Virus record (IMG/VR): IMGVR_UViG_3300016484_000428
Span: 1 to 33,560 of that record
DNA: 33,560 bases
Source: a virus
Taxonomy: Duplodnaviria > Caudoviricetes
Strand: one strand, 5' to 3'
A program made the translations under genes and the position numbers. Positions 1 through 33,436 of the stretch are shown here, in pieces (the stretch's first letter is position 1; each line of letters opens with the position of its first letter). The notes beneath the pieces were generated by a model that saw only the letters and a list, made by a program, of their open reading frames with translations, was not told the DNA's origin and did not search any database.

Positions 1-1024
1 CAGGTGACAGCATCTGCGCCGAGTTCGTCGTGAACAGCACGTTGCCCGTGCCGCTCTGCTGGCCGATGAGCTGCTGTTCCCGCTGCACGCCGCCCGGGGC
101 ATCGCCAATTGGCACGTTGAGAATCGTGAACGTCTGCTTGCGCAGCAGCTCGCGCACCTCGCTGATGCAATTGTAGAGGTCGATGTAGAGCTGCGGGTCG
201 CCGAGCACCGATCGCCCAATAAACGGCGTCAGGGCGCGGCGCTTGGCATACAGGACAAACGCCGGGACCACGCCGAAGTCGTGCGTGCCCTGGCTAATGA
301 CCTTGCCGTTGCGCGTGCGCAGAATCCAGCCCTCGGCATTGACCTCGCGGACGCGAATCTCGATGCTGCTCGCCGTCAGGGTCTTCTGGTAGCTCTCGCG
401 CGGCACCGCCTCGAGGAACTTGACCGACCGCAGTGCGCCCTGCTCATCGACCAGCCAGTCGGGCACGTCGATGGGCGTATACCAGCGCACGACCGCGCGG
501 CGCGGGTCGTCCGGCAGCACATCCACGTAGCCCCAGAGGTGCCCGAACGCCGCGCACGGCCCCCACGCTTCGTGGAGCAGGTCGTCCCACGTGTTGCCGA
601 GCCCGTCGGCATTGCGCCAGAACTGCATCAACGGGCTGTTCATGTCGAGCTGGCCCGCGCCAGACGTCCGCTCGGGCTTCATGCGGAACAGCAGGCCCTG
701 CAGCTGCTCGATGAGCGTGGCGGCGATGTTCTCGTAACGCGCCAGCTTGCGGCGCTCGGTCAGCTTGGGTGAAGCCTGCTTGGGGCTCGGGTTGACCTCA
801 TAGCGCAGCACGTTGCCGTTGCTGTCGTAGATGGGAATGCTGTGGTCCAGCCACTCGCGGGGGTGCGCGATAAGGTAGGGCCTGCTGTCGTCGATGAAGC
901 CCCCGCCGCCCTCGAAGACATCCAGCAGCTTAGTCCAGATGTCGCGGTAGCGGAGATAGAGCGGGTGCGTGACTCCCAGCACGCTTGACGGCGTGCCGGT
1001 AGGCGTAGACGCAGGAATAGCCAC
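1..1024 (-). CDS. Portal protein, SPP1 gp6/DUF4055-like (module 2), 3' end beyond the window
   Basis: Not in the ORF track (runs off the edge). Manual translation from GTG at 1024: MAIPASTPTGTPSSVLGVTHPLYLRYRDIWTKLLDVFEGGGGF..YLIAHPREW..RRKLARYENIAATLIEQLQGLLFR..FWRNADGLG..HDFGVVPAFVLY..YIDLYNCISEVRELLRKQTF; open for 341 codons; downstream of terL. Confidence 0.75.
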   Translation of the reverse strand, partial: MAIPASTPTGTPSSVLGVTHPLYLRYRDIWTKLLDVFEGGGGFIDDSRPYLIAHPREWLDHSIPIYDSNGNVLRYEVNPSPKQASPKLTERRKLARYENIAATLIEQLQGLLFRMKPERTSGAGQLDMNSPLMQFWRNADGLGNTWDDLLHEAWGPCAAFGHLWGYVDVLPDDPRRAVVRWYTPIDVPDWLVDEQGALRSVKFLEAVPRESYQKTLTASSIEIRVREVNAEGWILRTRNGKVISQGTHDFGVVPAFVLYAKRRALTPFIGRSVLGDPQLYIDLYNCISEVRELLRKQTFTILNVPIGDAPGGVQREQQLIGQQSGTGNVLFTTNSAQMLSP

Positions 1025-1030
1025 GCTTGA

Positions 1031-1059
1031 AGTTTGCGTGTTCGCTTACATGGTGTCAA
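1031..1059 (-). promoter_or_regulatory. Putative sigma70 promoter for a leaderless portal-2 mRNA
   Basis: TTGACA (1054-1059) - 17 nt - CAAACT (1031-1036) - 6 nt - GTG start; no Shine-Dalgarno upstream. Confidence 0.55.
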
Positions 1060-1081
1060 CCGAATAGCCCCACATCTGGGC

Positions 1082-1303
1082 CTACGGCTTGCGCAACAGC
1101 GTGATGTGCACCTCGTAGCCGAGCCCGTCGGCGAACCGCACGAAGGTATCGACGCTGGTGTTCTCGCCGTTGGCGATGCGTTGGAGGGTGCTCTCCCCCA
1201 CACCGGACCGTTTTGCGGCCTCCTGCAGACTCCACCGATTCGCAGCCAGCACCAGCCGCAGATGCCGACGCAGTTCCCCCCGCATCCTCTCTACTGCGGT
1301 CAT
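1082..1303 (-). CDS. XRE/Cro-type helix-turn-helix protein (73 aa)
   Basis: WSLQEAAKRSGVGESTLQRIANGENTSVDTFVRFADGLG; ATG at 1303 overlaps the HNH stop (ATGA). Confidence 0.8.
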   Translation of the reverse strand: MTAVERMRGELRRHLRLVLAANRWSLQEAAKRSGVGESTLQRIANGENTSVDTFVRFADGLGYEVHITLLRKP

Positions 1304-1782
1304 GTCGTTACCGTTTTGCCCTCTCTGACTGCACGCCAGTAGTTGCGCGGCATTCGGTTTTGTGCCTGTTGCGCGACAGTTGCCCATCTGACATTACCTG
1401 GCGCATAGTTGCCGAGCGGGTTGATTCTGTCGATTGAGCAGCCCGCTGGTCGTGGTCCGACTTCGGCAAAAAATTGCTCGAAAGATTCAAACAGAAACTT
1501 GACATTTTCATAAGCGGGATGGTGTTTGCCACCATCAACTGCCCGTTTCTTGGCCCTCGCATAACTTCGATACGCATAGGCTTTCACAGGGTCGTTCTTG
1601 ATTCCAGTGCCAGCGCGTGGGTGCGGCTTATCCTCAAATCTGGTTTGATTCCGGCATGTTTTACAGAAAAGTTCGCGGCCAAGACTTTGTGCTTTCTTGA
1701 CCACATCAGCTCTTGTCAAGCGCGAGACGCGACACCTAGGGCAGCATGTTTCGACTCGCTTATTGAAGTTAGGCATAACCAA
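1300..1782 (-). CDS. HNH homing-type endonuclease
   Basis: CxxC pairs at the N-terminus; GPRPAGCSIDRINPLGNYAPGNVRWATVAQQAQNR HNH motif; visibly lower GC than its flanks. Confidence 0.85.
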   Translation of the reverse strand: MVMPNFNKRVETCCPRCRVSRLTRADVVKKAQSLGRELFCKTCRNQTRFEDKPHPRAGTGIKNDPVKAYAYRSYARAKKRAVDGGKHHPAYENVKFLFESFEQFFAEVGPRPAGCSIDRINPLGNYAPGNVRWATVAQQAQNRMPRNYWRAVREGKTVTT

Positions 1783-1803
1783 ATGGTAGCACTACCACTT
1801 GGT

Positions 1804-2094
1804 TTATTTCCATTTAATTTTGTTTGCCCACCACGCCGCCGACATCGGCCCCTTGGCGATGTTTTCGGCGTGGCGGGCCCGGAAGGCCATCCGACGCTCG
1901 CGGTTGGCCTCCGACTCGCCCTCCCGATGCGGCGAGCCCTTCACGCCCTGCTGGCCGAACCGGATGGTCTTCACTTCGTCGCCCTGCTTCGCCACCACGA
2001 CGTGCGATTTCGTCGGGTGGTTCGGCGTGCGCTTGGGCTGGTTGTAGCCCTCGACGCCCGCCGCCTCGAGTCTCGGGTCACGCTTCTTTGCCAT
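1804..2094 (-). CDS. Small basic phage protein (96 aa)
   Basis: MAKKRDPRLE..KRTPNHPTKSHVVVAKQGDEVKTIRFGQQG..RRMAFRARH..SAAWWANKIKWK; GGAGG RBS before ATG 2094. Confidence 0.7.
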   Translation of the reverse strand: MAKKRDPRLEAAGVEGYNQPKRTPNHPTKSHVVVAKQGDEVKTIRFGQQGVKGSPHREGESEANRERRMAFRARHAENIAKGPMSAAWWANKIKWK

Positions 2095-2287
2095 CGTCTG
2101 TCCTCCGTGGGAATCCTCGCACCTTGTCTGCCTTGGTCTGCTCGTAGGCCCAGAGGCCGAACTGCCAGACCGCAATCGCTCCGGCCAGCAGCCCGAGCAG
2201 GTAGGCCGCCCACCCAGGCACCGGCACCGCCACCACCAGCGCCCACAGCAGCACGAACCACGCCAGCGCCACACACAGCCGTTCCAT
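2078..2287 (-). CDS. Small membrane protein with two TM segments
   Basis: Two hydrophobic stretches; GGAGG RBS directly after the terL stop. Confidence 0.6.
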   Translation of the reverse strand: MERLCVALAWFVLLWALVVAVPVPGWAAYLLGLLAGAIAVWQFGLWAYEQTKADKVRGFPRRTDDGKEA

Positions 2288-2296
2288 GTCGCCCTC

Positions 2297-3571
2297 CTAC
2301 AGCCAGCCCACGGTCGCCATGCCCACGCCGCCCCGCTGCACGAGCGGCCATTCCTGCGCGACGGCGTAGCCGAAGGCGTCGGAGATGTGCGTCAGCAGCG
2401 GGTTGCGCTTCTTGTCGAGGTCGCCGTTGTCGGCAAACACGACCTGCTCGAGGTCTGCAATCAGATGCTCACACGCCGGGTCCACCACTAGGTGCGACTT
2501 GCCGTCCATCGTCTGGCACCGGGCATTCACCGCCGCCACACGGTCGCGGACGTGCGGGTTGGCTTTCGGAATATACCACTGCGCGTGCGGGAACACCTCG
2601 CGTAACACGGCATGGTCGGCAGGGCCGGTGGTCTTGGCGGCTTGGCCACTGGCGTCGCCGTAGATGCGCAGCTGGCCCGTCCATCCCGCCGACTGCAGTA
2701 GCTCCTTGGCGCGCAGCGCTGCCGCACGGGTCGCCTCGCCCCCGGCATGGGCAATCCAGATTTCGCGCCACACGTGGCACTCATCGCCGATGCGCTGGAA
2801 GATGACGCCCGTCGATGGCTGCACGTTGAAGTCGAACGCCAACCCGACCCACGGGCCTGGCTGGAGGTGCACGGCGCGGCGGTGCTGCTGGCGGTCGAAG
2901 GCGTAGTAGGCGCGTCCGGCGACGGCCTCGAAGCTGGCCTCCCACTCCTGCCGAAAGGTGCGCGGGTCGGTCGTCTGCCGCGCTTCCTCGATTTCCTGCG
3001 GGTCCAGCGTCGGGTTGTCGATGCTCTTGAACTGCCACGAGGCCCACGAGCGCCAGCGGTCGTCCGTGGACTGCCCCCGCTCGAACAGGGCGTGGAAGTG
3101 ATTGAACGACTTCGGCGTGCCGATGAACAGCGCCGGGGCGCGATAGTCGGCCAGCGCGGGACGGATGGCCCGTTCCCATGCGTCCGGTTTCATGTCGGCG
3201 AACTCGTCCAGCACGGCAAACCGCAGGCCGCGGCCCACCAGGTCGTCGGGGTTGTCGGCCCCGTGCAGGCGTAGCTCGGCCCCGTTGCGCAGGCGAATGG
3301 ACAGCTCGGACTCGTTGACTTTCTCCACCCATGACGGGTGCAGGGACTCCTTGAGGTCGTCCCACATGATGTCCTTGGCCGCCTTGAGCGTTGGGGCGAC
3401 ATACCAGTAGCGGCCTTTCCCGCCACGCAGGGCGCGGGTGTTGAGCTCGACGCGCGCTAGGTAGGTCTTGCCGATGCGGCGACCCGCGCAGACCACACGA
3501 AATCGCTTCCGACTGCGGAAGACTTCGGCTTGCTTGGCGTGTAGCGCAAAGCGCCACGGCTCAGTCGTCAT
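2297..3571 (-). CDS. terL: Terminase large subunit, Terminase_6/PBSX-like (module 2)
   Basis: Walker A AGRRIGKT, Walker B AVLDEFAD, motif III IGTPK, nuclease DFNV..YGDASG..HISDAFGY; 424 aa intact. Confidence 0.92.
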   Translation of the reverse strand: MTTEPWRFALHAKQAEVFRSRKRFRVVCAGRRIGKTYLARVELNTRALRGGKGRYWYVAPTLKAAKDIMWDDLKESLHPSWVEKVNESELSIRLRNGAELRLHGADNPDDLVGRGLRFAVLDEFADMKPDAWERAIRPALADYRAPALFIGTPKSFNHFHALFERGQSTDDRWRSWASWQFKSIDNPTLDPQEIEEARQTTDPRTFRQEWEASFEAVAGRAYYAFDRQQHRRAVHLQPGPWVGLAFDFNVQPSTGVIFQRIGDECHVWREIWIAHAGGEATRAAALRAKELLQSAGWTGQLRIYGDASGQAAKTTGPADHAVLREVFPHAQWYIPKANPHVRDRVAAVNARCQTMDGKSHLVVDPACEHLIADLEQVVFADNGDLDKKRNPLLTHISDAFGYAVAQEWPLVQRGGVGMATVGWL

Positions 3572-3857
3572 CGCGCGGCTTCAGGCCCTCGCCAGGCTGG
3601 AGCAGGTCGATGATGACCGGGGCCATCGGGACGTTGTGCTCGATGGTTTCCTTGGGCTTGCCGTAGGCGTAGTGGTAGAGCAGGGGCTCGACGGCTCCGG
3701 CAGTGCCCTCGCGCAGGCGGGTCTTGAGCGCGGCGATGTAGGCCGGGTCTTCGAGCAGCGCCTGCGAGGCTTCGCGGATTTCGCGCGTGGCCTTGTTCGG
3801 GGTGCCCTTCTTGCGGCCCCCGGTCTTCGGTGCGCCTTTCGGTCGTCCTCGTGCCAT
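3561..3857 (-). CDS. terS: Putative terminase small subunit (module 2)
   Basis: GRPKG/GGRKKGTPNK N-terminus, YAYGKPKE motif, overlaps the terL start. Confidence 0.7.
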   Translation of the reverse strand: MARGRPKGAPKTGGRKKGTPNKATREIREASQALLEDPAYIAALKTRLREGTAGAVEPLLYHYAYGKPKETIEHNVPMAPVIIDLLQPGEGLKPRDDD

Positions 3858-3915
3858 GTAAACTACTCTACAGTAGAAAAGGGGTTTTATTGGTGGTGTG
3901 GTTTGTTTGACACAC

Positions 3916-4125
3916 TCAGTGTTTCGTCTTGCACTCGGCCATCAGCAGCTCGCGGGTTTCGGTCTCGCTGGTCACGTCTTCGTCCTCGATGAGGTCGAGC
4001 AGGGCCATTGCGCAGAGCGCCGACAGGCTCAGGCCGTAGCTGGCGGCGATGCGGACGGCCTTGTCGTGCTGGGCGTGACTCACCCATGCCGTGATGGCGC
4101 GGCCCTCGGCGCGGCGGTCAGGCAT
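3916..4125 (-). CDS. Ribbon-helix-helix-like DNA-binding protein (69 aa)
   Basis: ITAWVSHAQHDKAVRIAASYGLSLSALCAMAL strand-helix-helix pattern. Confidence 0.5.
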   Translation of the reverse strand: MPDRRAEGRAITAWVSHAQHDKAVRIAASYGLSLSALCAMALLDLIEDEDVTSETETRELLMAECKTKH

Positions 4126-4528
4126 GGAGATGGGCCCGGGAGAAACAGGCGAGGATGCGAGCCCGCGCCACGCCGGTTCTGACATCTTGAGGCGTCACGG
4201 GCACAAAGCGATAGCCTGCGGCGGCAATGGCCGCTTGCTTCTCGAAGTCTTTGACCAGCCCGCTGCCGCGCCCGTGCTTGCCGCCCGTCCAGATGCCGCC
4301 CTGAATCTCGACGGCCACACCGGGCCAGCCGCTGGCATCGCCGACGAGAAGGTCGATGCGCCACCGCCGCGTCGCGTGGAACCGCTGCTCTGGCAACACC
4401 ACAAGGTCAGGCCGCGCCTCGCGCAGCTGCGCCAGCAGGGTCGCCTGCGGGCCGCTTAGGCCGTCACTTCTTGTCGGGCGTCGGCGTCCAGCCCTGCTTG
4501 CGGAGGGTGCCGTAGATGTAGGCATCAC
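4118..4528 (-). CDS. PD-(D/E)XK endonuclease, DUF559/Vsr-like phage family
   Basis: EQRFHATRRWRIDL..VAVEIQGGIWTGGKHGRGSGLVKDFEK..GYRFV; GTGA overlap with the upstream nuclease stop. Confidence 0.75.
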   Translation of the reverse strand: MMPTSTAPSASRAGRRRPTRSDGLSGPQATLLAQLREARPDLVVLPEQRFHATRRWRIDLLVGDASGWPGVAVEIQGGIWTGGKHGRGSGLVKDFEKQAAIAAAGYRFVPVTPQDVRTGVARARILACFSRAHLHA

Positions 4529-4607
4529 GTCGCGCTCCCGTCAGGCCTTTCTTGGCCGCTTCCTTCTTCAGTGCCGCCTCGATTTTCCCGAAGTTTTCCT
4601 TGGGCAT
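4464..4607 (-). CDS. Small basic protein (47 aa) fully overlapped by its two neighbours
   Basis: Manual translation MPKENFGKIEAALKKEAAKKGLTGARRDAYIYGTLRKQGWTPTPDKK; GGAG RBS; GC3-rich codons. Confidence 0.6.
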   Translation of the reverse strand: MPKENFGKIEAALKKEAAKKGLTGARRDAYIYGTLRKQGWTPTPDKK

Positions 4608-5022
4608 GGGGGTCTCCGGCGGTCAGTGTAGCACGGGCCCCCGTCCACGGCTGGCGCTTGGTCTGCCCGTCGTAGGGCCGCGCCAGCTTGGCGGCAATGA
4701 GTGCCTGCTGCACCGTCTCTCCGGTGTCCTGGTCGATGAGGGTCGCCAGCAACCGCCCGAACTTGTCGCGCCCGTCGCGCACGGTCCGCAGGATGATGCG
4801 GTCGGCCCGTGCCTCGCACCACTGCGCGACCAGCGCTTGGGCGTCATGCGCCATGCACCGCTCGTCGAAGGTCTTCCCGCGCAGCTCTGGCGTGTCGATG
4901 CCCTCCAGCCGCACGCGCACGGTCAGGCGGGCGTGGAAGCCCAGCTCGACCTCGAGCTCGACCGTGTCGCCGTCGATGACGTCCAGCAGACGGCAGCGGT
5001 AGTGGTAGCGCGGGTCGGTCAT
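4525..5022 (-). CDS. Thermonuclease (SNase-like) family nuclease
   Basis: VIDGDT..VRLEGIDTPE..DKFGRLLA..LARPYDG motifs; ATGA overlap at 5019-5022. Confidence 0.85.
   Translation of the reverse strand: MTDPRYHYRCRLLDVIDGDTVELEVELGFHARLTVRVRLEGIDTPELRGKTFDERCMAHDAQALVAQWCEARADRIILRTVRDGRDKFGRLLATLIDQDTGETVQQALIAAKLARPYDGQTKRQPWTGARATLTAGDPHAQGKLRENRGGTEEGSGQERPDGSAT
4625..4633 (-). promoter_or_regulatory. Putative extended -10 promoter (TGcTACACT)
   Basis: TG-n-TACACT 17 nt upstream of the 47-aa ORF start; no recognisable -35. Confidence 0.4.
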
Positions 5023-5333
5023 GGCGTCTCCTCCTCCTGTTCGCAATAGGCGCGCACTCGCTCAAGGTCTGGCCACCCCGACTTCGTGACCGCTCGCCCG
5101 ACGAGGCTGTCATGTCCAACGTGCTGGTCAAAGTACCTGCACATCTGTGCAAGCGCATCGTCCAATTCCGCCGCTCTGAAGCCGCGTGCGCTGATGACCC
5201 CCACCAGCCACTCCGTGCTGACATACCAATCGTCGCCGGCAGTATAGATGCAGCCGCTGCCGCACGGCAGCGACTCGATCAACTCCTCCACAAGATGAGT
5301 CCGGTGCGTGTTGTTCATGACGTCATCTGTCAT
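5019..5333 (-). CDS. Hypothetical protein (104 aa)
   Basis: ORF coupled by ATGA overlaps at both ends. Confidence 0.6.
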   Translation of the reverse strand: MTDDVMNNTHRTHLVEELIESLPCGSGCIYTAGDDWYVSTEWLVGVISARGFRAAELDDALAQMCRYFDQHVGHDSLVGRAVTKSGWPDLERVRAYCEQEEETP

Positions 5334-5401
5334 CTCGGCCCCCCGTTTGCTTTGCTATTTAGCATTGCAACCATTGCTAACATTGCAACATGCCCGGTCA
5401 T
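5330..5401 (-). CDS. Putative 23-aa micro-ORF (MTGHVAMLAMVAMLNSKANGGPR)
   Basis: ATGA overlap with both neighbours; contains three 9-bp tandem units beginning CATTGC. Confidence 0.4.
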   Translation of the reverse strand: MTGHVAMLAMVAMLNSKANGGPR

Positions 5402-6162
5402 CGTGGCCACCGCCTGCGATACTCGGCCAGCATCGTATCAGCTATGATCACTCGCTTTTCTCCCGTGATGTACTCCGACACGCATCGGAAAAAGACCTCG
5501 CGCCAGATGTCTTCGTCGCTGGGGCGTGAGCTGTCAAGGATTGCTTGACCGTTGGCCATGTCGAGGTTCTGCGCGGATTGGTCGGTTGGCCTGTCCGCGC
5601 CTGCCTGCTGGAGCCGATACACCTGCTGACGGGCGTGGTCACGCTCGCGCTGATGCTGGTCGATAACTTTCGCGGTGACCTTCGCGAACTCGTCATACTG
5701 CACCTGCACCCGCGTTAGCTTCTTACGAGTCTCGTGCAGTTCGACGGTCAGTCGCTCCACCTCGGCCAATGCTTTGTTCCCATCGGCCACGACCCGGTCG
5801 GTTTCGGCCTCTTCCGCTGCCGCTGCGGCTTCGGCGTGGGCCTTCATTTCGTCGGCCTGCTCGACCGCTACGGTCAGCGCCCCGACCTGTTCTTTCAGGC
5901 GCTCAACCTCGGCCTGTGCCGCGTCGCGCTGGGCAGTGAGCTGCTCCACCTCGCCTGCAACCCAGCGCAGCTCGATGCCGTCGGCCCGCGTCCGGTGCAG
6001 CTCGGTCGTCAAACCAGTGATGTGCGTCTCCATCTCAGTCTGGCGTGCCGTCAGCCGCTCGAACTCGGCTCGATGGTCGTCGTAGCGCACCCAGTCGCCA
6101 CTGCTCGCTGGCATCATCCCGCCGCCGCCCCAGATCGTAACAAACCGCTCGATGTCACTCAT
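5398..6162 (-). CDS. Coiled-coil hypothetical protein (about 254 aa)
   Basis: GDWVRYDDH N-terminal motif followed by repeated (A)EVERLT heptads; GGAGG RBS. Confidence 0.65.
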   Translation of the reverse strand: MSDIERFVTIWGGGGMMPASSGDWVRYDDHRAEFERLTARQTEMETHITGLTTELHRTRADGIELRWVAGEVEQLTAQRDAAQAEVERLKEQVGALTVAVEQADEMKAHAEAAAAAEEAETDRVVADGNKALAEVERLTVELHETRKKLTRVQVQYDEFAKVTAKVIDQHQRERDHARQQVYRLQQAGADRPTDQSAQNLDMANGQAILDSSRPSDEDIWREVFFRCVSEYITGEKRVIIADTMLAEYRRRWPR

Positions 6163-6434
6163 CGTCCCCTCCATTCCGCTTTTTCTCGCGCCCGCCCGGC
6201 AGTCTCCACGTCGAGCATCGCGTCCAGCAGCTCGACCACGCTGTCGCGCATCTGCTTCGTCGAGACGGTCTGCCCCCCTTGCAGATGCACCAGCAGGTCG
6301 CGCAGCGCGACAATGGCCCCGCGATACCGTTCTCGCCGGTTCCAGTGCTTGACGATCTCTGCCGTCTCTCGGCAGTAGGTCTTCGGCGGTGTGGGAACTG
6401 CCGAGGATTCCTCGGGCGTTGGCGTGTCACTCAT
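6159..6434 (-). CDS. Hypothetical protein (91 aa)
   Basis: MSDTPTPEESS..; ATGA-coupled on both sides. Confidence 0.55.
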   Translation of the reverse strand: MSDTPTPEESSAVPTPPKTYCRETAEIVKHWNRRERYRGAIVALRDLLVHLQGGQTVSTKQMRDSVVELLDAMLDVETAGRAREKAEWRGR

Positions 6435-6649
6435 CGCCCATCCTCCATCATCGCCCGGATGCGCCGCCCGATCTCGTCGGCCGTCTCTTTGGCTTCGCCG
6501 GGGCGGGCCTTTGCGCCCACCTGGTCGGCCACGAGTGCGGCCCGTCCCAGCATGGCGTTGCACAGATAATCCGTCTCTGCGCTGACCTGTCGTAGCTGGT
6601 CAGCCATGCCGCGAAGCATGATAAGGATGTCGTTTACCCTGTCGCTCAT
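6431..6649 (-). CDS. Hypothetical protein (72 aa)
   Basis: MSDRVNDILIMLRG..; ATGA-coupled, GGAGG RBS. Confidence 0.55.
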   Translation of the reverse strand: MSDRVNDILIMLRGMADQLRQVSAETDYLCNAMLGRAALVADQVGAKARPGEAKETADEIGRRIRAMMEDGR

Positions 6650-6882
6650 GCCGCCCCTCCCGTCGCCCGCGCATACCGCTGCTGCGCCCGCGCCTGCGCG
6701 ATGATCGCGTCGATCTCGGCCGGCGGCAGATCTAGCGTGTCGTCGATCGGCTCGCCCAGGCTGCGCCGATACCAGACGCGCACGGCGCATTGCTTTTCGG
6801 CATACTTCGCCGCCGTCCCCTGCGGCCCCTTCTTCGCCCGCACCGGCCGGCCGCACCCGCACGCGCACAGCCCGCCGGTCAC
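6646..6882 (-). CDS. Hypothetical protein with a CACGCG zinc-binding-like motif (78 aa)
   Basis: GTG start overlapping the previous stop; CACGCG..C. Confidence 0.55.
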   Translation of the reverse strand: MTGGLCACGCGRPVRAKKGPQGTAAKYAEKQCAVRVWYRRSLGEPIDDTLDLPPAEIDAIIAQARAQQRYARATGGAA

Positions 6883-7067
6883 GACCGCGCCTCCTTGAGC
6901 ACCGCCTGCGCCTCGACGAACCGCGGATCGCGCGGGTCGGTCGCCTCCCATTCGGCCAGGCCGACGCCCACGCGCTCCAGCTTCAGCGCCATGCGCCACG
7001 CTGCCGCCCAGCCCACCACCACGCCCAGCAACAGGCCCCCAAACAGACTGATCCAGATCTCGCCCAT
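6879..7067 (-). CDS. Small protein with an N-terminal TM helix (62 aa)
   Basis: MGEIWISLFGGLLLGVVVGWAAAW; AAGGAGG RBS. Confidence 0.6.
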   Translation of the reverse strand: MGEIWISLFGGLLLGVVVGWAAAWRMALKLERVGVGLAEWEATDPRDPRFVEAQAVLKEARS

Positions 7068-7096
7068 GTCGTCCTCCTTCGTGTGTGTGTGTGAAC

Positions 7097-7276
7097 CGAC
7101 CAGCCGGGCGGGCCGTGTCTCCTCAGCCCCGCGCCCGCTCTCCCACAGGCCCGGCCCCATGCCGGCCGGCTGGTCGTCTACCGGATGCCCTCGGCGGGGC
7201 CTCCCAGCCCCGGCCACGCGGCCGGCGGGCGTGTTTTCGTGCTGCCAGACCGGCAGCCGCCCGGCCCGCCGAGGGC
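7097..7276 (-). ncRNA. Candidate structured RNA/DNA element with two multi-stem domains
   Basis: Perfect inverted repeats 7097-7107/7166-7176 (11 bp) and 7187-7198/7265-7276 (12 bp) enclosing nested stems (7210-7225, 7241-7257, 7226-7231/7258-7263); fills the largest intergenic gap in the window. Confidence 0.45.
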
Positions 7277-7283
7277 CTCCACC

Positions 7284-8267
7284 TTACCGGCCGCGCTGGT
7301 CGTGCAGCGTGCGCCAGTATCGAATCTCAGCCAGGGCCAGCACGATCAGCAGCGACAGACGCGAGCCGACTGACGGCCCGAACCCCGTCAGCTCTGCCAG
7401 CTCATCGTCGCTCATCAGCGGAGCCCCGGCCGGCGGCACCACCGGCGGGGCGACCGCCACGGGCTCGGCCGCTGGCACCGCCTGCGGGGCCGCCTGCGCC
7501 TCGACCGTCGCCGGGGCGACCTGCGCATCGGCCGCCAGCTGCTGGGCCTCCTGCGACGCCCGGATGGCCGCTTCGGCCGCCTCCAGCCGGCGCGCCAGCT
7601 CGTCGGCCCGTTCCCGCTCGGCCCGTGCCGCATCGTCGGCCGCCTGCCGCTCGGCCTCCAGCCGCTCGCGCTCGACGGCCACCGCGTAGGCCAGCTGCAG
7701 CTGGTCGACGATCTCAGCCCGCAAGGCCACGCCCTCGTGGTGCCGCTCCTCGAGCCCGTCGAGGCCCATCGTCCGCGCATCGGCCAGCTTGGCCGCAATG
7801 GCCTCGCTGGGGGCCGTCGACGGCATGGCCAGCGCCCGCAGCCGCCCCAGCACGTGCGCGATCCGCACCTGCCGGGCCTCTTCGTCCAGCTCCCACTGCG
7901 TCAGCGGGGCCCGGACGGTGCCCTTCAGGGCGTCGAGGGCCTCGCGGATGCGCCGGCGCTGGGCGTCGACCGCGGCCGATTTGGCCTTCCAGTCGGCCAC
8001 GAGATCCTTGCCCAGGTCGTCGAGGGCTGTCTTCGTCCGCGCCACCCGGTGCGCCAGGCTGGCCAGCTCGGCCCGACCCGCGCGCGTGTCGGCCGTCAGC
8101 CCGTCGGCGGCCTGCCGCGCCTGCCGCTCGACCTCCTCGATGATGGCGTCCACACTGTGCGGGCTGGCGTAGACCGTCACGGCCGTGACCGTCGTGCCGA
8201 CCGGCACCAGATACCCGGTCACTCGATCACTGTCGACCGGCACCGTCTCAGAAATGATCAGGCTCAT
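7284..8267 (-). CDS. Phage coiled-coil protein of the type found beside recombination genes (327 aa)
   Basis: GRAELASLAHRVARTKTALDDLGKDLV..VDAQRRRIREALDALK..VRAPLTQWE; ATGA-coupled to the exonuclease. Confidence 0.6.
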   Translation of the reverse strand: MSLIISETVPVDSDRVTGYLVPVGTTVTAVTVYASPHSVDAIIEEVERQARQAADGLTADTRAGRAELASLAHRVARTKTALDDLGKDLVADWKAKSAAVDAQRRRIREALDALKGTVRAPLTQWELDEEARQVRIAHVLGRLRALAMPSTAPSEAIAAKLADARTMGLDGLEERHHEGVALRAEIVDQLQLAYAVAVERERLEAERQAADDAARAERERADELARRLEAAEAAIRASQEAQQLAADAQVAPATVEAQAAPQAVPAAEPVAVAPPVVPPAGAPLMSDDELAELTGFGPSVGSRLSLLIVLALAEIRYWRTLHDQRGR

Positions 8268-8911
8268 GACCGCCCTCCGCGCCAGTGCCCCAGCCGCTCG
8301 GCCAGCGCCCGCGTCAGTCGGATGTCCGACAGGACGTGCGACTTGATGCCAGTCCAGTCGCCAGCCGCATACAGGGCCGCGATGTCGCTGCCGCTGATCG
8401 TGTCGTCGACCGGCAGGGCGAATCGGCGGGCGAACCACTTCAGCGACCGCGCCTGAATGGCCCCGTTCCACGTCAGGCGCAGCATGAGGTCGACGCAGGG
8501 CGTCCGATACTTGTCGAGGCTCACCGGCGGGGCCTTGACGCCCAGCAGGGCCGACCGGGCCAGCAGCACCGGCAGGTCGAAGGACAAGTGATTGAACCCG
8601 ATGATCGACGCCACCAGCCCTTCCTTGTGGTCGAGGGCCAGCTGCCAGACCTGCCGCAGCAGCTCGGCCTCTTCGGCCTCGTCAGCGGCCGTCAGGACGT
8701 GCTCGACCTGGTCGCCGTCGATGATGCCCACAGCGACCACACGAGCCGTCCACGGATACAGCGCGGCTCGGCTGGTCTGCTCGGCCTGCTTCTCGGCCAC
8801 GTAGGCCGCGATCTTCGCCGGGTCTTTGTAGTTCGCCGGCGCTGTGACGGGCTCGGCCAGATCGGCTGCCCCGTCGATGGCCACAGTTTCAATGTCGAGG
8901 ATGATCGCCAT
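8264..8911 (-). CDS. Stand-alone 3'-5' exonuclease (DnaQ/PolB proofreading-like)
   Basis: ExoI ILDIET, ExoII GFNHLSFDLP, ExoIII HVLSD. Confidence 0.85.
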   Translation of the reverse strand: MAIILDIETVAIDGAADLAEPVTAPANYKDPAKIAAYVAEKQAEQTSRAALYPWTARVVAVGIIDGDQVEHVLTAADEAEEAELLRQVWQLALDHKEGLVASIIGFNHLSFDLPVLLARSALLGVKAPPVSLDKYRTPCVDLMLRLTWNGAIQARSLKWFARRFALPVDDTISGSDIAALYAAGDWTGIKSHVLSDIRLTRALAERLGHWRGGRS

Positions 8912-8925
8912 GTGGTCGCCTCCCC

Positions 8926-9462
8926 TCAGAAGGGAATGTCATCCGCGTGGACGTCCTCGGCCGGGGCGTCGACCGTCTGCGCGACCGGGCCGGCGTCGAC
9001 CGCCTGCCGATCCTTCACGCGCACATAGCCGGCCGAGATCGGCAGTTTCGGTGTGCGTGCGGCCAGCGGCATGATCGCCGCAATGTCGGCGTAGGTCTTG
9101 CCGTTGCGCGAGGTGTGCATGACGTTGATCAGGCACCCGGCGCCGATCAGCTTCTCGAGGTCGAACTGCTGCAGCTCCTCGGCCGTGAACGCCCGCCCGC
9201 GCCACGACTGCAGGTCGGCCCGCAGTCGGGCCTTCTCGTGCAGACTGGCCGTGTAGCGGCTCGACACCGTATAGGGCCGCCCGTCCTCCATCAGCTCGGC
9301 CAGCTGCCAGATGATCCGCACCTTGTGCGCGGTCTTCTTCTGCCCCTGCCACTCGCTCTCGACGATGCCGAGATCGACCACATCACAGCACACTGCCTGA
9401 TGCACACCCGACGGGGCCGGTGAATAGTCGCCCCCGCCCCCTGCCGAAACATGAATTGCCAT
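8926..9462 (-). CDS. Single-stranded DNA-binding-like protein
   Basis: beta-rich body (HQAVCCDVVDLG..SLHEKARLRADLQSWRG..FDLEKLIG) and an acidic SSB-type C-terminus DDIPF; AAGGAG RBS. Confidence 0.7.
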   Translation of the reverse strand: MAIHVSAGGGGDYSPAPSGVHQAVCCDVVDLGIVESEWQGQKKTAHKVRIIWQLAELMEDGRPYTVSSRYTASLHEKARLRADLQSWRGRAFTAEELQQFDLEKLIGAGCLINVMHTSRNGKTYADIAAIMPLAARTPKLPISAGYVRVKDRQAVDAGPVAQTVDAPAEDVHADDIPF

Positions 9463-9502
9463 TGCTGTCGCTCCTTGTTGGGTTGTCTACGGTCTTACCT
9501 GG

Positions 9503-10542: not shown

Positions 10543-10558
10543 GGTCATGGCCTCCGTG

Positions 10559-27149: not shown

Positions 27150-28340
27150 TTACGCCGAGAACTTCAGGAACTTGATCGCGTCGAAGTCGACGACGCCGCC
27201 GCCCACGCGACGGGTCGCATGGAAGGTGATGTAGGGGTTGTTCGAGAAGGGGTCACGCAGCACCGACAGGCCGAGCCGGTCGACGACCATGTACCCGTTG
27301 CCGAAGTTGCCGAACGCGATCGACAGCGAATCGGCACCAACCGCCGGCATGTCCTCGGCCTCGACCACGTTGTAGCCCAGCAGCACCGACGGATTGCCGG
27401 CCTGCGTCGAGGGCTGCCAGATGTAGTCGCCGCCGCTGGTCTTCAGCACGCGGACGGATGCGAGCGTCGCCTTCGACATCATGAACACGGCACCCTGTCG
27501 GTAGCCCGACTTCAGCTTGCCGGTCAGGTCGATCAGCTTGTCGACGCCGTTGGCATTGCTGCCGAAGCCGCCCGACGTGCCGGTCGCCACGTGCTCAAGC
27601 TGACCCCACGCGCGGGAGCTGTCAGCCGTGGCGGCCGTGGTGTAGGTCGTGATCCCGCGCGGGCGTCCGACGCCGCTGCCGGTGATGAATGCAGTCTGCT
27701 CGCTCAGGGCGAAGTCACGGGCGATGCTGTCCGACAGCCACTGCTCCACGTTGACGGCTGCGTCCTCCAGCATGTTGGGCCCGATGCGCGGGCTCGACCG
27801 CTGGTTGTTGACCTCGATGCGGTACTTCTTCAGCGTCGGCGTGGCCGGGTCGGTGCTGGTCGTCACTTCGTCCAGCCACGACACCGACAGCTGGCCATAC
27901 GACACCACACCCTCGACGGCATTGCCGCTGATGGTCTGAATGCGCGCGACCTGACGCATGGGCGAGCCGTCGAAGAGCCGCTGCACCAGCGGGCCGACGA
28001 CCGACTCGGGCACCAGGTAACCGCCGTTCTCGTTGTCCGAGATCCGCATGGCCTTCGCCTGCGGAGCCGCATCACCGCGACGCAGCCACGCGCTGAACGC
28101 CGCCTTCTGCTCGTCGGGCTGACCGCTGGTCGGGGCCGCCGACGCGCGGGTGATAGCCGCCTCGGTCGCCTTCAGCCGCTCGGCCAGCTGGTCCAGGTCG
28201 GTGTTGATCTTGTCGATCTTGGCCAGGTGATCGCCCTGCCCCTGCTTCTCCTCGATCGCCTTCAGGCGGGCATCGTTCGCGGTCTTGAGTGCCTCGAACG
28301 CGGCCGCCTGAGCGTCGAGCACCTGCTTCACGTTGTCCAT
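27150..28340 (-). CDS. Major capsid protein, HK97 family
   Basis: Coiled-coil delta domain, GGYLVPE, AFITGSG..PRGI, GDYIWQP, AFGNF, RVGGGVVD. Confidence 0.95.
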   Translation of the reverse strand: MDNVKQVLDAQAAAFEALKTANDARLKAIEEKQGQGDHLAKIDKINTDLDQLAERLKATEAAITRASAAPTSGQPDEQKAAFSAWLRRGDAAPQAKAMRISDNENGGYLVPESVVGPLVQRLFDGSPMRQVARIQTISGNAVEGVVSYGQLSVSWLDEVTTSTDPATPTLKKYRIEVNNQRSSPRIGPNMLEDAAVNVEQWLSDSIARDFALSEQTAFITGSGVGRPRGITTYTTAATADSSRAWGQLEHVATGTSGGFGSNANGVDKLIDLTGKLKSGYRQGAVFMMSKATLASVRVLKTSGGDYIWQPSTQAGNPSVLLGYNVVEAEDMPAVGADSLSIAFGNFGNGYMVVDRLGLSVLRDPFSNNPYITFHATRRVGGGVVDFDAIKFLKFSA

Positions 28341-28349: not shown

Positions 28350-29756
28350 CTACGGATTGAACCGCCGGCACAATGCCGCGGCCTCGTCTGCTGTCAGATC
28401 CGGTGCGCTTGCCTCACGCAGCGCCCGCATGCCCGCCGTCGCCACAGCCTTCGCCTCGGACCGCGAGAAGCCTGCCTCACGCAGGATGCGCTCCAGTCCT
28501 CGGTAGCTGCCGCTTCGGGCGTCCTTCACGGCCGCGACGCGCGCGTCCGTATTCGCAGGGAACGTCACCAGGGACGTTTCCCACAATTCAATGCCGACCA
28601 GCTCGCGCACGTCGCGCTCACGGTCATACCGCTCGCCGCTGACGGAATAGCCGATGGACAGGCCAGACAGCGCGCCCATCTTCAGCAGGGCATAGGCCTC
28701 GCGGCCCAGCTGCGTGTCGGCCAGCTCGCCGACGACGTGCAGCCCGCGCGCGTCCTCCCGCATCGACCGCCACACGCCAATTACCTGTGACGGGTCGTGC
28801 TGCCAGAGCATCGCCGGCATGCGCCCTGATCCTTCAGCCTTGCGGATCGTGTCAGCGAATGCCCCAGGCATCACGACATCGCCGTAGCTGTCGACGACGC
28901 CGAACACAGAGCCGTAGCCCTCGAACGTGCGATCCGCGTCCAGCGCTTTGTAGCTGCAGGCGACCGCCTTGATCTCGCGGCCGGCCGATGTGGCGCTGCG
29001 CGCCACGTCGAGTGCGTCGTCGATTCGCATCATCTCCTCGCGCTTTCGTGTCGACCAGCTCTGGCCCGGATCGCCGCCCCACAGGGCCCACGCGATGCGG
29101 CCAGCCGATGGGTAGCCATCCTCGTCAGGCCGGTAGCCCTGCCCTTCCTTGTCGACCTCATGCCGGGCAAACCAGGCCGCCATTGTGATGATCGTTTCTG
29201 GCGTCATCTCGTCGCCAGACAGGATCTGCCGCGCGCGTCGCACTGCGACACCAGTGCCCCCACGGCCAAACTGCTCGCGCCAGTCGAGCCCCCGCTGGGC
29301 TTCGGCGCGCATCGCGCTTGTCGGCTGCAGATCAATCGGCTCGCCACGATAGACCGCGCGCACCTCGTCGGTGTCGGTCAGGAACTCCTCGGCCGTCAGC
29401 GCCTGCAGGCCGAGCCGGCGCGCCATCTGCCGCACCCCTGCGTCATTGTCGACAGCGGATTCCAGTTCGTCGCCATACTCTTCAATCAGCAGGCTGTACT
29501 TATATTCCTTGAACGCCAGGGCCACATTCGGGCCGGTGCGATCCGCGAAGTCATTCAGGTGCAGCTCGTCGAATGGCACACCGTTCGCACGCAACCACGC
29601 GCGCGTGTCGTCCATGCGATCGACCGTCCGACTGGAGACGATCAGAAACCGATCACCGTTGTCTGCCATTGCGCGCATGCGCGCGATCAGCGGCTCGCGT
29701 GGCGTATCGCCGCTGGTCGTCAGCGTGCCGTCGATGTCGATGATGTATGCCGACAT
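28350..29756 (-). CDS. Prohead protease (HK97 family) with an N-terminal HAD-like domain and a middle domain
   Basis: N-term IIDIDGTL..IVSSR..FKE..AVDND; middle AQRGLDWR..GRGGT..WFARH..GRIAWALWGGD; C-term FEGYGSVF..LWQHD..GLSIGY..ETSLVTFPAN. Confidence 0.88.
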   Translation of the reverse strand: MSAYIIDIDGTLTTSGDTPREPLIARMRAMADNGDRFLIVSSRTVDRMDDTRAWLRANGVPFDELHLNDFADRTGPNVALAFKEYKYSLLIEEYGDELESAVDNDAGVRQMARRLGLQALTAEEFLTDTDEVRAVYRGEPIDLQPTSAMRAEAQRGLDWREQFGRGGTGVAVRRARQILSGDEMTPETIITMAAWFARHEVDKEGQGYRPDEDGYPSAGRIAWALWGGDPGQSWSTRKREEMMRIDDALDVARSATSAGREIKAVACSYKALDADRTFEGYGSVFGVVDSYGDVVMPGAFADTIRKAEGSGRMPAMLWQHDPSQVIGVWRSMREDARGLHVVGELADTQLGREAYALLKMGALSGLSIGYSVSGERYDRERDVRELVGIELWETSLVTFPANTDARVAAVKDARSGSYRGLERILREAGFSRSEAKAVATAGMRALREASAPDLTADEAAALCRRFNP

Positions 29757-30979
29757 CAGGCCGTGCCTCCATTGCGCGGCTGCCCGATCGGCTGCATGTT
29801 CAGCGGCTCGAGGTAGTCGTCGCCGCCCGGCACCTCGTCGAGGTTCTCCAGTCGGCGAATGTCGTTGATCGACAGGAAGCCCGCCTGTCGGCCAACCATA
29901 TAGGCCTGATACCGGCTGGCGATGTCGCCACGCAGCAGGCCGTCCAGTTGGAACTCGAAGAAATAGTTACGCCGCTGCTGCGCCGAATCCGACAGCAGGC
30001 TGGCATGCAGCACCTGCTCGAACAGCACCGCCCACGGTCGGATGCAGTGCTGCACGAACTCAATCGATTGGTGTTCGATATTCGAGAATGTCGAACGCTC
30101 CAGATCGCCGATCATGTGCGCCGGCACGCGGAACGCCGCCGCGATCTCCGTGCGCGTGAACTTGCGCGTTTCCAGCAGCTGCAGGTCTTCGTTGGTCATG
30201 CTGATCTTGTCGACCTGCATGCCCTCCTCGAGGACGGCCACGCGGCCGGCCTTGCGCGCGCCACCGTAGGCGGCCTGCCAGGATTCCTTCAGCCGGGCAG
30301 CGGCCTCCTCGTCCAGCACCTGCGGATGTCGCAGCACGAGGCCTGGCGTGGCGTCGTTCTCCAGCAGCGTCCGGCCGTAGACCTGCGCGCTGTGCGCCGT
30401 GTCGATGATGTCGGCCGCATCCTGAATCAGCGACCGCCCCATCAGGCCCGACGTCGACAGGCCGCGCAGGTGCAGCACCTTCGGATAATCGCCAGCGAAC
30501 GCCTGCCGATACTCGCGCGCCCCGCCCTCGGCCAGCGTGTAGCGATACACCGGCCCATACGCCCCGCGCTGCACGTCCATGCGCGACGGGTCCAGGATGT
30601 TCAGCTCGCGCACGAAGCCGTCGACGCGCACGATCTCGGCGTAGGCGTTGCCGTGCAGCAGCACGTGCGCCATCATCTGCTCGCGCCATTCGGCGCTGGT
30701 CTGGAAGGGGTTGGGTTTCCACCGCAGCAGCTCGGCCAGCGGATCGTTATCCTGCCGCTGCTTGCCTGATGCCGTGCGCCTGTACAGCAGCAGCGGCAGC
30801 GTGCCAATGGTCTGCGCGATGACATTCACGCAGGCCAGCACGGTCGACACCTTCAGGGCATCGTCCTCGCCGACCTTGCCCGTACGCAGGAAGTCCGAGA
30901 CCAGCTGCTGCAGGGCCGTCGACTTCGCCCGCCTGGGGGCCGGTACCGCGCCGATCAGGCGCTCAAGAATAGTAGGCAC
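29756..30979 (-). CDS. Portal protein, HK97 family (module 1)
   Basis: VLACVNVIAQTIGTLP, PNPFQT, LLHGNAY, VLHLR, QLLETRKF..EIAAAFRVP, FSNIEHQ, INDIRRLENL. Confidence 0.95.
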   Translation of the reverse strand: MPTILERLIGAVPAPRRAKSTALQQLVSDFLRTGKVGEDDALKVSTVLACVNVIAQTIGTLPLLLYRRTASGKQRQDNDPLAELLRWKPNPFQTSAEWREQMMAHVLLHGNAYAEIVRVDGFVRELNILDPSRMDVQRGAYGPVYRYTLAEGGAREYRQAFAGDYPKVLHLRGLSTSGLMGRSLIQDAADIIDTAHSAQVYGRTLLENDATPGLVLRHPQVLDEEAAARLKESWQAAYGGARKAGRVAVLEEGMQVDKISMTNEDLQLLETRKFTRTEIAAAFRVPAHMIGDLERSTFSNIEHQSIEFVQHCIRPWAVLFEQVLHASLLSDSAQQRRNYFFEFQLDGLLRGDIASRYQAYMVGRQAGFLSINDIRRLENLDEVPGGDDYLEPLNMQPIGQPRNGGTA

Positions 30980-30987
30980 GCGCGTCT

Positions 30988-31021: not shown

Positions 31022-31053
31022 GCGTCAGTATGTCGACGCGCGCGCGTGATGTG

Positions 31054-31248
31054 CTACAGGTCGTTGCCGTTGCTGCCGTTGGTTTCTGCTCGCTTCCCCG
31101 GATCAACGTCGTCACGTCGCACGAACACACGGCGCGCGGCCGGTGAGGCCTTCGTCGACTGCACCGCGCCCTTGTCGATCCAGTTGCGGATCGTGCGCTT
31201 CGTCACCCGCGCGAGGCTCGCGGCCTCGTCCATCGTGATCCACTGCAT
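31054..31248 (-). CDS. Excisionase/MerR-like (HTH_17) DNA-binding protein (64 aa)
   Basis: WITMDEAASLARVTKRTIRNWIDKG..RVFVRRDDV. Confidence 0.8.
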   Translation of the reverse strand: MQWITMDEAASLARVTKRTIRNWIDKGAVQSTKASPAARRVFVRRDDVDPGKRAETNGSNGNDL

Positions 31249-31251
31249 CGG

Positions 31252-32955
31252 CTACCCCCCCAGAATGATCAGGCCGCGATCGCGCGGGCCTTTCGGTTTC
31301 GGCGTCAGCTGCGGCAGGCGTGACAGCGCCATGATCAGCGCAACCACGCCGTCGATCTTCTCGGCCGCCCGCGCCTTGTCGGGGGCCACATTGCCGTTAG
31401 GGTCTGTCCTGACAATCAGATTGTCAGCCATCCAGCGCAGCACCGGATGGCCACCGTGCTGCAGCTGCCCCTTCGCCACGAACTCGGCCAGTTGCTTCGT
31501 CGGTTCGCTGAGCGTGCGATAGCCCTGCCGAACCTCGACCGGCGTGAGCCCGTCGGCCTGCAGCTCCGTCGCCAGGCTGGTTGCATTCCATGAATCGTAA
31601 GCCAGCTCCCGCACGTCGAACTCGCGCGACAGCTCCAGCAGGGCCGCACGGATGAACGCCTGGTCGATGACGTCCCCCGGCGTCACCTGAAGATACCTGG
31701 CCCGCACCCATGCCTCGAGCGGCACCAGCGCCCGCCGCGATTGCTGCACCGCGGCCTCTGGGGCCCAGATGGTCGGTAGCACGATCACGCCGCCATCAGG
31801 CCGACGGAACACGGCCACGGCCGCCGTGAAATCGAACTTGGCCGAGACATCCATGCCGATCACGCAGGGCTGCCCGCGCAGCGCAGCCCGGTCGATCGTG
31901 GCGCTGTTTGCCTCGCTGTCCCACTGCGCCATCGGTAGATACCGCTCGGCCGCCTGCACCCATTGACCGAGATGCAGCCGCCGAAACTCCGACTCAAATG
32001 CTGGGATGTGCTGCGCCTGCAGGCACTTGCGCGCGAGGTCGTCGGCCTTGACCGACACGCCAAAATTAGGATTCGCCTTGCGCCAGATCGCCGGGTCGCG
32101 CCAGTCGTCCTTCGGGTCCGCGCCAATGATGCAGCCGAACCATGACGGATCGTCGACGATGCCGCGCACGACCTGGCTGCTGTACTGATGATGGTCTGCA
32201 CACACGCCCGTCGTGCCCACGCCGGCCGTCGTGATCTCGAACAGCAGCGGCTGCCGTCGTGTGCCCGTGCCCGTCGACAGCACGTCGATCACACCGCTCG
32301 ACTTCATGGCGTGGATCTCGTCGATGATGATCCCGTTGGGCCTCAGCCCGTCGAGCGTATCCTCGTCGCCACCCAGCGGCACCAGCTTCGACGCGCTGGC
32401 GTGGTGCCACAGATGGGTCTTCAGCGGCTCGATGCGCTGGGCCAGCGCCGGCACGCGGAGCACCATCTGCCGCGCCGTCTCCCATGTGATCTTCGCCTGG
32501 TCCTTCTTGGTCGCTGCGCAGTAGACCTCCGCGCCGGGCTCGCCGTCGAAGGCCAGCAGGCGCAGGGCGATCCCGGCCGCCGTGGTCGACTTGCCCTGCC
32601 CCCGCGGCTGCTCGCAGTAGGCCTGACGGAACCGCCGCCGGCCGTCCTCGAGCAGCCAGCCGAACAGGCTGCCGACAATAAACCGCTGGAACGGCTGCAG
32701 GTCAATCGGCTGCCCCGCCCATTCGCCTTTGTAGTGCCGCAGCTTGCCGAAGAATGCGATCGCCAGCTCGGCCGTCTCTGGCGACCACCGCCAGCCGCGA
32801 TCCCGTGCGACCGTCAGGTCGGCCAGGTGCCGCGCGCACGCCGCCCGCAGCAGCTCGCCGCCAGGCTCGTCGCCGTCGGCGACACGCCGCGCGTAGGCCG
32901 TCGCGCCGTCAGGCGGGGCCGGTGTGATCGCTCGCCGTCTACGCGCTGGGCTCAT
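31252..32955 (-). CDS. terL: Terminase large subunit, Terminase_1/HK97-like (module 1)
   Basis: Walker A PRGQGKST, Walker B IIIDEIH, ITTAG, WRKANPN, GMDVSAKFDFTA, KIDGVVA; 567 aa intact. Confidence 0.95.
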   Translation of the reverse strand: MSPARRRRAITPAPPDGATAYARRVADGDEPGGELLRAACARHLADLTVARDRGWRWSPETAELAIAFFGKLRHYKGEWAGQPIDLQPFQRFIVGSLFGWLLEDGRRRFRQAYCEQPRGQGKSTTAAGIALRLLAFDGEPGAEVYCAATKKDQAKITWETARQMVLRVPALAQRIEPLKTHLWHHASASKLVPLGGDEDTLDGLRPNGIIIDEIHAMKSSGVIDVLSTGTGTRRQPLLFEITTAGVGTTGVCADHHQYSSQVVRGIVDDPSWFGCIIGADPKDDWRDPAIWRKANPNFGVSVKADDLARKCLQAQHIPAFESEFRRLHLGQWVQAAERYLPMAQWDSEANSATIDRAALRGQPCVIGMDVSAKFDFTAAVAVFRRPDGGVIVLPTIWAPEAAVQQSRRALVPLEAWVRARYLQVTPGDVIDQAFIRAALLELSREFDVRELAYDSWNATSLATELQADGLTPVEVRQGYRTLSEPTKQLAEFVAKGQLQHGGHPVLRWMADNLIVRTDPNGNVAPDKARAAEKIDGVVALIMALSRLPQLTPKPKGPRDRGLIILGG

Positions 32956-33436
32956 CGTCGAAGGGGTCGATCTCCCGCGCCGGCTCGACCGGCACGCGGA
33001 GCAGGCTGGCCGGGTTCAGGACCAGATCGTTCTCCAGCGCCCGCGCCTTGTCGAGCCACGACCGCAGCATCGCATCGGCCGGGTTCGCCTTCACGATCTC
33101 GCGCGTCGTCCCATCGGGCTGGCACTGCGTCGTGATGATCACCGGGGCCGACTCGCGGACGATCTGCGTCAGCCGCTGCACCTGCGCCATTGCGACGCAA
33201 TAGCGGCCCAGCGCATCGACCGACTTGTCGCTGAGCCGGCCGTCGGCGGCCAGCCTGGGGGCGTAATACCGCCAGATCTCCAGCTCAGGGCCGGTCAGAT
33301 AGGCCGGGGCGTCGGGCGGGGCCGGCATGACCGGCAGCTGGCGCGGCCCGCCTGACCGCTTGCCGGGCTTCGTCATCGACCGGCCGCTGCCGATCTCGGG
33401 CAGCCGACCGCCGCGCGCGTGTCCTCCTGATGGCAT
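32939..33436 (-). CDS. terS: Terminase small subunit, P27-family-like (module 1)
   Basis: PPDAPAYL..EIWRYYAP..DALGRYC..KANPA..LVLNPAS; GGAGG RBS. Confidence 0.85.
   Translation of the reverse strand: MPSGGHARGGRLPEIGSGRSMTKPGKRSGGPRQLPVMPAPPDAPAYLTGPELEIWRYYAPRLAADGRLSDKSVDALGRYCVAMAQVQRLTQIVRESAPVIITTQCQPDGTTREIVKANPADAMLRSWLDKARALENDLVLNPASLLRVPVEPAREIDPFDDEPSA

Follow-up and report, generated by a model that had tools for sequence, protein, structure and literature searches.

The window, as we call the whole 33,560-nt stretch of viral DNA analysed here, carries two sets of DNA-packaging genes that are both real but probably belong to two different aquatic phages. We put at about 90% the probability that it is an assembly chimera, in which two ordinary phages from one sample were joined via common DNA. 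The original prediction had described two unrelated packaging/portal modules in a continuous phage gene string, and this observation is confirmed in its coordinates and gene identities; of the four interpretations offered with it, the assembly chimera is favoured, and the two-particle genome, the phage-satellite fusion and the tandem prophages found no support. Phage A, with an HK97-type head and probably cos ends, would account for the window from 33560 to ~5400, and phage B, which has a phrog_2 terminase, an SU10-type capsid and a closed relative of 34.4 kb, for ~4930 to 1.

Two unrelated packaging modules

The phage A arm (6695–33560, minus strand) comprises a cos-like end, an HK97-type head module, and tail, lysis, nucleotide-metabolism and early genes. 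TerS (32939–33436) matches Pfam Terminase_4 (E 5.9e-14) and phrog_83, and its match to TIGR01558 (P27 family) falls below that model's cut-off. TerL (31252–32955), of the HK97/Terminase_1 type, matches TerL_ATPase, TerL_nuclease and phrog_9 (E 1e-162), and is followed by the portal (29756–30979; TIGR01537 portal_HK97), the prohead protease (28350–29756; Peptidase_S78) and the major capsid protein (27150–28340; TIGR01554), all on the minus strand. With connector, tail and tape measure genes extending to ~17 kb, these profile matches bear out the predicted HK97-type module of Terminase_1-type TerL, portal, protease, capsid and tail.

The phage B arm (1–4644, minus strand) encodes a phrog_503 protein, a small ORF, a putative terS, terL, phrog_7595, an HNH insertion, an HTH protein and the 5' part of a portal gene. 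The Terminase_6-type label given to its TerL (2297–3571) is upheld by matches to Terminase_6N (E 2.9e-11) and phrog_2 (E 3e-43). The ORF proposed as terS (3561–3857) is present and overlaps the terL start, it has viral hypothetical proteins as its Atlas neighbours, and no Pfam, PHROGs or NCBIfam family matches it above cut-off, so that the putative terS identity is one of position. The gene at <1–1024 is indeed a portal (phrog_145, E 4.7e-19), truncated by the contig end to 341 of 541 residues; the SPP1/DUF4055-like label is weakly suggested by a sub-threshold DUF4055 match of the full-length copy in a closed relative (G001, E 0.0022). Both TerL proteins keep, as predicted, motifs that we take to be Walker A/B-like and nuclease-like; BLASTP finds no relationship between the two (best E 0.26), and by HMM they belong to different families.

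Several features had made the junction look seamless, and these hold as well: every called gene runs in the same direction (minus strand), the composition scan gave no GC step at the junction, no att-like repeat was found there and no long exact repeat among the matches listed, and the 59 ORFs scanned include no integrase or host gene. Scans of the window likewise returned no tRNA and no terminal repeat of at least 10 nt, and comparison of positions 1–8000 with named phage records gave only short matches to 10 records, none covering more than 3%. None of eight test proteins from the missing parts, including the DnaB, initiator and HNH proteins of phage A, has a match in the window, so that the window as it stands lacks a replication module.

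Relatives with one module each

The B module sits in a 34,398-bp IMG/VR record with direct terminal repeats (G001), a closed phage that matches window positions 5027–1 at ~95% nucleotide identity and whose completeness CheckV gives as 73%. Phage B resembles G001 (phrog_2/Terminase_6N TerL, phrog_145 portal, SU10-type capsid) in gene order and in its TerL (99.8% amino-acid identity), portal (98.8%) and putative TerS (98%), and differs from it by a 513-bp HNH insertion in the window copy; outside this insertion the arm is ~95% identical in nucleotides and 95–100% in amino acids to G001, L001 and L002. G001 has its own portal, scaffold, capsid, tape measure, fibre, Erf, exonuclease and initiator genes, and gave no match to the A-type terS, terL, portal, protease or capsid. 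Headful packaging may be the mode of phage B, being associated with its phrog_2/Terminase_6N-type set; the closure of G001 with terminal repeats fits a headful phage without showing circular permutation.

The A arm is tiled by six overlapping independent records (L006, L010, L040, L222, L223 and L138) at 79–95% nucleotide identity, and a further record, G002 (70–76%), bridges it from 13.9 to 7.9 kb. The tail-fibre region at ~16.6–18.5 kb is unmatched, L222 and L223 spanning this gap with other sequence. A glycosyltransferase gene sits among the tail genes of phage A. A-type relatives (G002, L138, L099 and L100) leave the SNase-like gene at the junction into another ORF, followed, within the reach of each record, by initiator, DnaB and HNH genes and a cos-like end, all missing from the window; G002 then continues into the A-type terS and terL. 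Each arm thus matches a different genome and diverges from it past the junction. Phage A DNA likely has its physical (cos) end at 33551–33560 (minus strand), to judge from the register of contig starts: the window starts in the same register as L006 and L007, L100 stops on the opposite side, and G002 has 10 nt between the corresponding positions, as read from contig sequences. An HNH gene adjoins the putative cos upstream of terS in L100 and G002 and is absent in the window. Summing lengths puts the phage A genome at about 34.0 kb.

Three of three records that cross both boundaries of the junction block connect like with like (G001 B to B via its terminal repeat, G002 and L138 A to A), a tally of only three, all short-read assemblies; L002 stops short of the block, and L001, L099, L100 and L139, which cross one boundary only, were left out. 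The search for both terL types together, as proposed for IMG/VR, went against a shared genome, the whole records G001 and G002 carrying one module each. Both modules were found together in 0 of 237 loci, several of them from the same record and none longer than ~21 kb, compared with the 23.6 kb separating the B-type terL from the A-type capsid gene here.

Phages A and B have a parallel gene order with parallel lysis and early modules and unrelated head modules. They have fibre, lysin and phosphoesterase homologs in common at 58–80% amino-acid identity, which suggests a related host. A host search yielded one distant locus for the B-type terL, three for the capsid and 16 for the A-type terL; three of these 16 are Vicinamibacterales MAGs (37–51%), and the top match (67%) is a 6-kb contig from a Nitrospirota bin.

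The shared block and its contig depth

The arms meet in a block of homology common to A and B (4645–6694) that consists of a run of small ORFs, the last being an SNase-like nuclease gene (4525–5022, minus strand; Pfam SNase, phrog_452). In the alignment this gene has a B-type 3' end: it encodes 165 residues in the window, A-type copies end near residue 129, and L138 and L099 follow window residues 1–129 and then diverge. The SNase query returned at least two close metagenome loci (L138 and L139) among at least 80 loci listed, from 35 of 64 parts of the collection. L099 matches G001 at 98.5% identity over 413 nt, and L139 reaches 100% over 664 nt.

The join may be explained by a 460-nt core (4930–5389) of this block, likely identical in the A and B phages of the sample. 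Such a core would give the assembly graph an X-shaped node, through which the assembler likely passed from A into B; the A-to-B path likely exists solely in silico. The joining repeat is absent within the window and common to two genomes instead.

We examined this region in X1, the probable source run and so perhaps not independent of the window, where depths are summed contig depths, neither copy number nor read depth; the data of all 22 runs listed consist of contigs. The core is a single 460-nt contig in X1, which we regard as a collapsed node and the likely misjoin point. Its depth of 16.9 approximates the sum of its flanks (9.4 on the left; 7.8 and 7.3 on the right), and the block averages 14.0 vs 9.6 and 7.1 on the arms. 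The summed contig depth expected of a chimera at the junction segment is thus found in X1; the depths of the two arms that the window leaves out (the exit proper to A, the entry proper to B) are implied by subtraction. Both unused exits expected of a chimera at a shared segment are present in X1: the loose end at 4645 matches A's continuation (L100) at 30 of 30 positions and that at 6694 matches B's upstream sequence (G001) at 27 of 30, the best unrelated matches scoring 19–21 of 30. The right-hand exit motif has no exact match among viral contigs, and L137, found by an 18-nt motif, was dropped as a chance hit with no other similarity.

A real minor recombinant is an unlikely alternative. In a co-infection by A and B, a single crossover in the block would give an A-B cointegrate, which the A terminase would package starting at cos and running on into B DNA, and the assembler would have followed a true minority path. 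Judging from the sequences, the two phages appear to exchange the SNase block in nature, and single-crossover molecules may therefore exist at low frequency. The near-identical block copies in both lineages, the common homologs pointing to a related host, the Erf-like annealing protein and exonuclease encoded by B, and a window of 33.6 kb close to the 34.0 kb estimated for A all accord with such a molecule. Against it, the depths add up with two molecules alone, and the exits of both parents exist; such a cointegrate would be missing the second cos and the replication genes of A, and the A-to-B path is seen in no other record. Were the junction real, cos-type and putative headful-type phages would recombine freely via the SNase block, with dual-packaging hybrids formed and packaged in nature, a prospect to which we give an equally small chance.

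One stable genome building two particle types is very improbable, even with two intact-looking terL genes, co-oriented genes and no GC step. Both findings named beforehand as telling against a single two-module genome were made, namely relatives with one module and a depth step between the arms: 9.2 for B (2.5–4.7 kb) and 7.3 for A (6.4–7.4 over 6.7–11.5 kb) in X1. The B/A depth ratio is 1.34 in X1 and 0.47, 6.19 and 0.43 in three other runs (four runs from four studies), so the arms do not co-vary and their relative depth differs ~14-fold between runs. Moreover, the B module lies in a closed genome without module 1, and A relatives return to the A-type terS via replication genes and HNH.

Tandem prophages, or a phage and a capsid-forming satellite integrated side by side, are scarcely credible: an excisionase-like HTH gene (31054–31248, minus strand; profile match) speaks for them, but there is no integrase or host gene among the 59 ORFs and no tRNA, the switch is located within a block of homologous genes instead of at genome ends, contigs of other assemblies start at the right end as they would for free virion DNA, and B, with tail and lysis genes of its own, is no satellite. 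Capsid-forming (cf-PICI-like) satellites have their own head module, an integrase and no tail genes; this candidate was rejected, A and B both carrying tape measure and fibre genes and the proteins scanned including no integrase.

Known systems and significance

The assembly chimera that we favour has a precedent in de Bruijn graph assemblers, whose chimeric contigs arise at regions conserved between co-occurring genomes, according to the excerpted text of PMC11443906. As there, a near-identical segment is common to two genomes and the graph cannot pair upstream with downstream contigs; unlike the strains of one virus in that excerpt, the two phages here have unrelated head modules and only downstream modules in common. 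For phage A, the closest parallel is HK97-type cos packaging by TerS, TerL and the HNH protein gp74 (PMC9410871, in part), for which that source states 3' ends of 10 nt in the legend of Fig. 1 and of 12 nt in the Discussion. Phage A shares with that system a Terminase_4 terS, a TerL_ATPase/nuclease terL and an HK97 portal and capsid, and apparently also, in its relatives, an HNH gene just before the putative fixed end and ~10 nt missing between contig ends; it differs in the glycosyltransferase among its tail genes and in that no integrase was found. The relation of A to B recalls lambdoid-style modular mosaicism, in which groups with different gene content carry highly similar transferred genes (PMC9836094, in the portion available). 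Parallel gene order and different head modules are common to both cases; unlike the lambdoid case as given there, A and B are uncultured aquatic phages of high GC in which no integrase was found, and the exchange is inferred from few contigs.

Among the titles in a partial coverage of the literature, none describes two complete, mutually unrelated packaging modules within a single phage genome. To our knowledge, tailed phages follow a rule of one terminase and one portal, which dual-packaging hybrids, if true and stable, would overturn. For virus catalogues the window, as judged here, is a warning that two phages can hide in a contig that is seamless, co-oriented and even in composition; a record with two terL types should have its graph checked. 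The remaining interest lies in two aquatic lineages with unrelated head and packaging genes that appear to exchange a block of ~2 kb, with identity as high as 100%.

Gene content of the window

The window is a complete virus record of 33,560 bp with no terminal repeat, and the genes named in the original prediction are present, every one on the minus strand. The right module holds a terS (Pfam Terminase_4), a terL (TerL_ATPase and TerL_nuclease, phrog_9) and the HK97 portal, protease, capsid, connectors, tail tube and tape measure; the left module holds a second terL (Terminase_6N, phrog_2), along with a portal (phrog_145) truncated where the contig stops. The two TerL proteins are indeed unrelated (best BLASTP E 0.26), and motifs of Walker A/B-like and nuclease-like type are preserved in both. 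The predicted left-module terS is present as an ORF but has no family match above cut-off, so the name terS2 is positional only. As predicted, no integrase was found among 59 scanned ORFs and the GC content does not step at the junction; no tRNA was found in the window.

A 513-bp low-GC (0.50) HNH endonuclease insertion at 1307-1819, between phrog_7595 and an HTH gene, is missing in the relatives L001, L002 and L003 and is likely a mobile homing endonuclease. At 29352-29771, a 420-bp insertion places a domain resembling HAD/PNKP phosphatases (a sub-threshold Pfam match, E 6e-5) in frame in front of the prohead protease ORF; it is missing in L006-L009, L011, L012, L032 and L040. The phrog_1376 gene (7296-8279) is a variable accessory gene, cleanly missing from relative L138, and a joint in sequencing run X2 skips 7292-8279.

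A probable X-shaped node at the junction

We conclude, with a probability of about 0.9, that the contig is an assembly chimera, one of the options originally offered, of two ordinary co-occurring phages, A (33560-6695) and B (4644-1), which share the block between them. Summed node depth, unused exits and records pairing like with like support this reading. The 22 listed runs were compared by words of window 3000-9000, 99% of which occurred in one run (X1), 36-48% in 19 others and next to none in two; X1 may be the source of the window. Depth over 2500-11500 was profiled from contigs in four of the 22 runs, as contig rather than read depth. In X1 it was 9.2 at 2500-4684, 9.4 at 4658-4959, 16.9 at 4930-5389 (one 460-nt contig), 7.8-8.5 across the pieces listed within 5547-6284, and 7.3 at 6661-9536, the depth of the 460-nt node being about the sum of those of the two arms. 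The B/A depth ratio, 1.34 in X1 and 0.47, 6.19 and 0.43 in three other runs, fits two independent populations, with the caveat that summed contig depth measures abundance only roughly.

Of the six loose ends listed for X1, two fall at the edges of the block. That at 4645 agrees with L100 at 30/30 and with L099 at 28/30 positions, A's own continuation, and that at 6694 agrees with the B-type virus record G001 at 27/30, B's own upstream; best unrelated matches reached 19-21/30. The sample therefore appears to contain each of the four arms of an X-shaped node, and the window's path through it is A-in, B-out. All three other records crossing both block boundaries pair like with like: G001 is B-B (via its terminal repeat), and the A-type virus record G002 and L138 are A-A. 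Joins between contigs across conserved regions are undecidable for de Bruijn assemblers (PMC11443906). Both modules occurred together in none of 237 loci (module-1 markers in 84, module-2 markers in eight), a weak tally given short and overlapping loci. A rare true A-B hybrid molecule, though improbable, is the one rival to the chimera retained, because block exchange would proceed via single-crossover molecules.

Phages A and B

The right arm is part of phage A. Between the right end and the SNase gene it is tiled by independent records (L006, L010, L040, L222, L223 and L138) at 79-95% nucleotide identity, and G002 bridges 13.9-7.9 kb of the window at 70-76%; the tail-fibre region varies among relatives. 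The phosphoesterase, methyltransferase, ssb-like gene, exonuclease, small ORFs and SNase stand in identical order in G002 and the window. Past SNase, G002 continues, unlike the window, into an initiator, DnaB, HNH and then terS1-terL1, and L138, L099 and L100 exit the SNase gene as G002 does. None of eight test proteins from the parts missing in the window matched it, and the contig therefore lacks a replication module. Summed lengths give phage A a genome of ~34.0 kb.

The register of the right end (33551-33560) is shared by the starts of two relatives (L006:1 and L007:1, printed sequences compared), L100 ends across that site ~10 nt away, and 10 nt separate the positions in G002 equivalent to the two contig ends. 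This is likely the cos site or end of phage A. Lying beside an HNH gene, the candidate would resemble the HK97 arrangement, in which the cos end adjoins an HNH gene (PMC9410871). Relatives of terL1 occur in 16 genome loci, three of which are Vicinamibacterales MAGs (L240, L241 and L247, at 37-51% aa), a weak lead to a possible host.

The left arm is part of a separate phage, B. A terL2 search returned five viral loci, three at 100%, and the terL2 loci align with window 5027-1 at ~95% nucleotide identity. The one reaching further upstream, L003, diverges from the window there; its record, G001 (34,398 bp, direct terminal repeats, CheckV 73%), continues after the portal with its own scaffold, SU10-type capsid, tape measure, fibre, Erf, exonuclease, initiator and methyltransferase. 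The window's genes for fibre, lysin and phosphoesterase, and a number of its small early genes, also have homologs in G001 (~40-80% aa). Nowhere in G001 is there a match to terS1, terL1, portal1, protease or capsid1. The proposed single genome with two packaging systems is most likely not real, and among the paper titles searched none described a genome in which two complete packaging modules, unrelated to each other, occur together.

In each phage a glycosyltransferase gene lies among the virion genes, that of A at 23637-24686, between tail terminator and tail tube, and that of B at L133:9200-12133, where it follows the capsid gene and encodes 977 aa; a putative role in virion glycosylation is possible.

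A block common to both lineages

Stretches of the SNase block (4645-6694) show 98.5-100% identity between the A and B lineages despite their unrelated head modules. Over 413 nt (L099:1-413), L099, whose exit leads into A genes, shares 98.5% identity with G001, and over 664 nt (L139:1235-1898) L139, whose entry is A-like, shares 100% with it; these short contigs could be chimeric too. Judging from these alignments, the block appears to have been traded between the A and B lineages in nature. Among lambdoid phages, gene blocks are known to pass from one group to another (PMC9836094).
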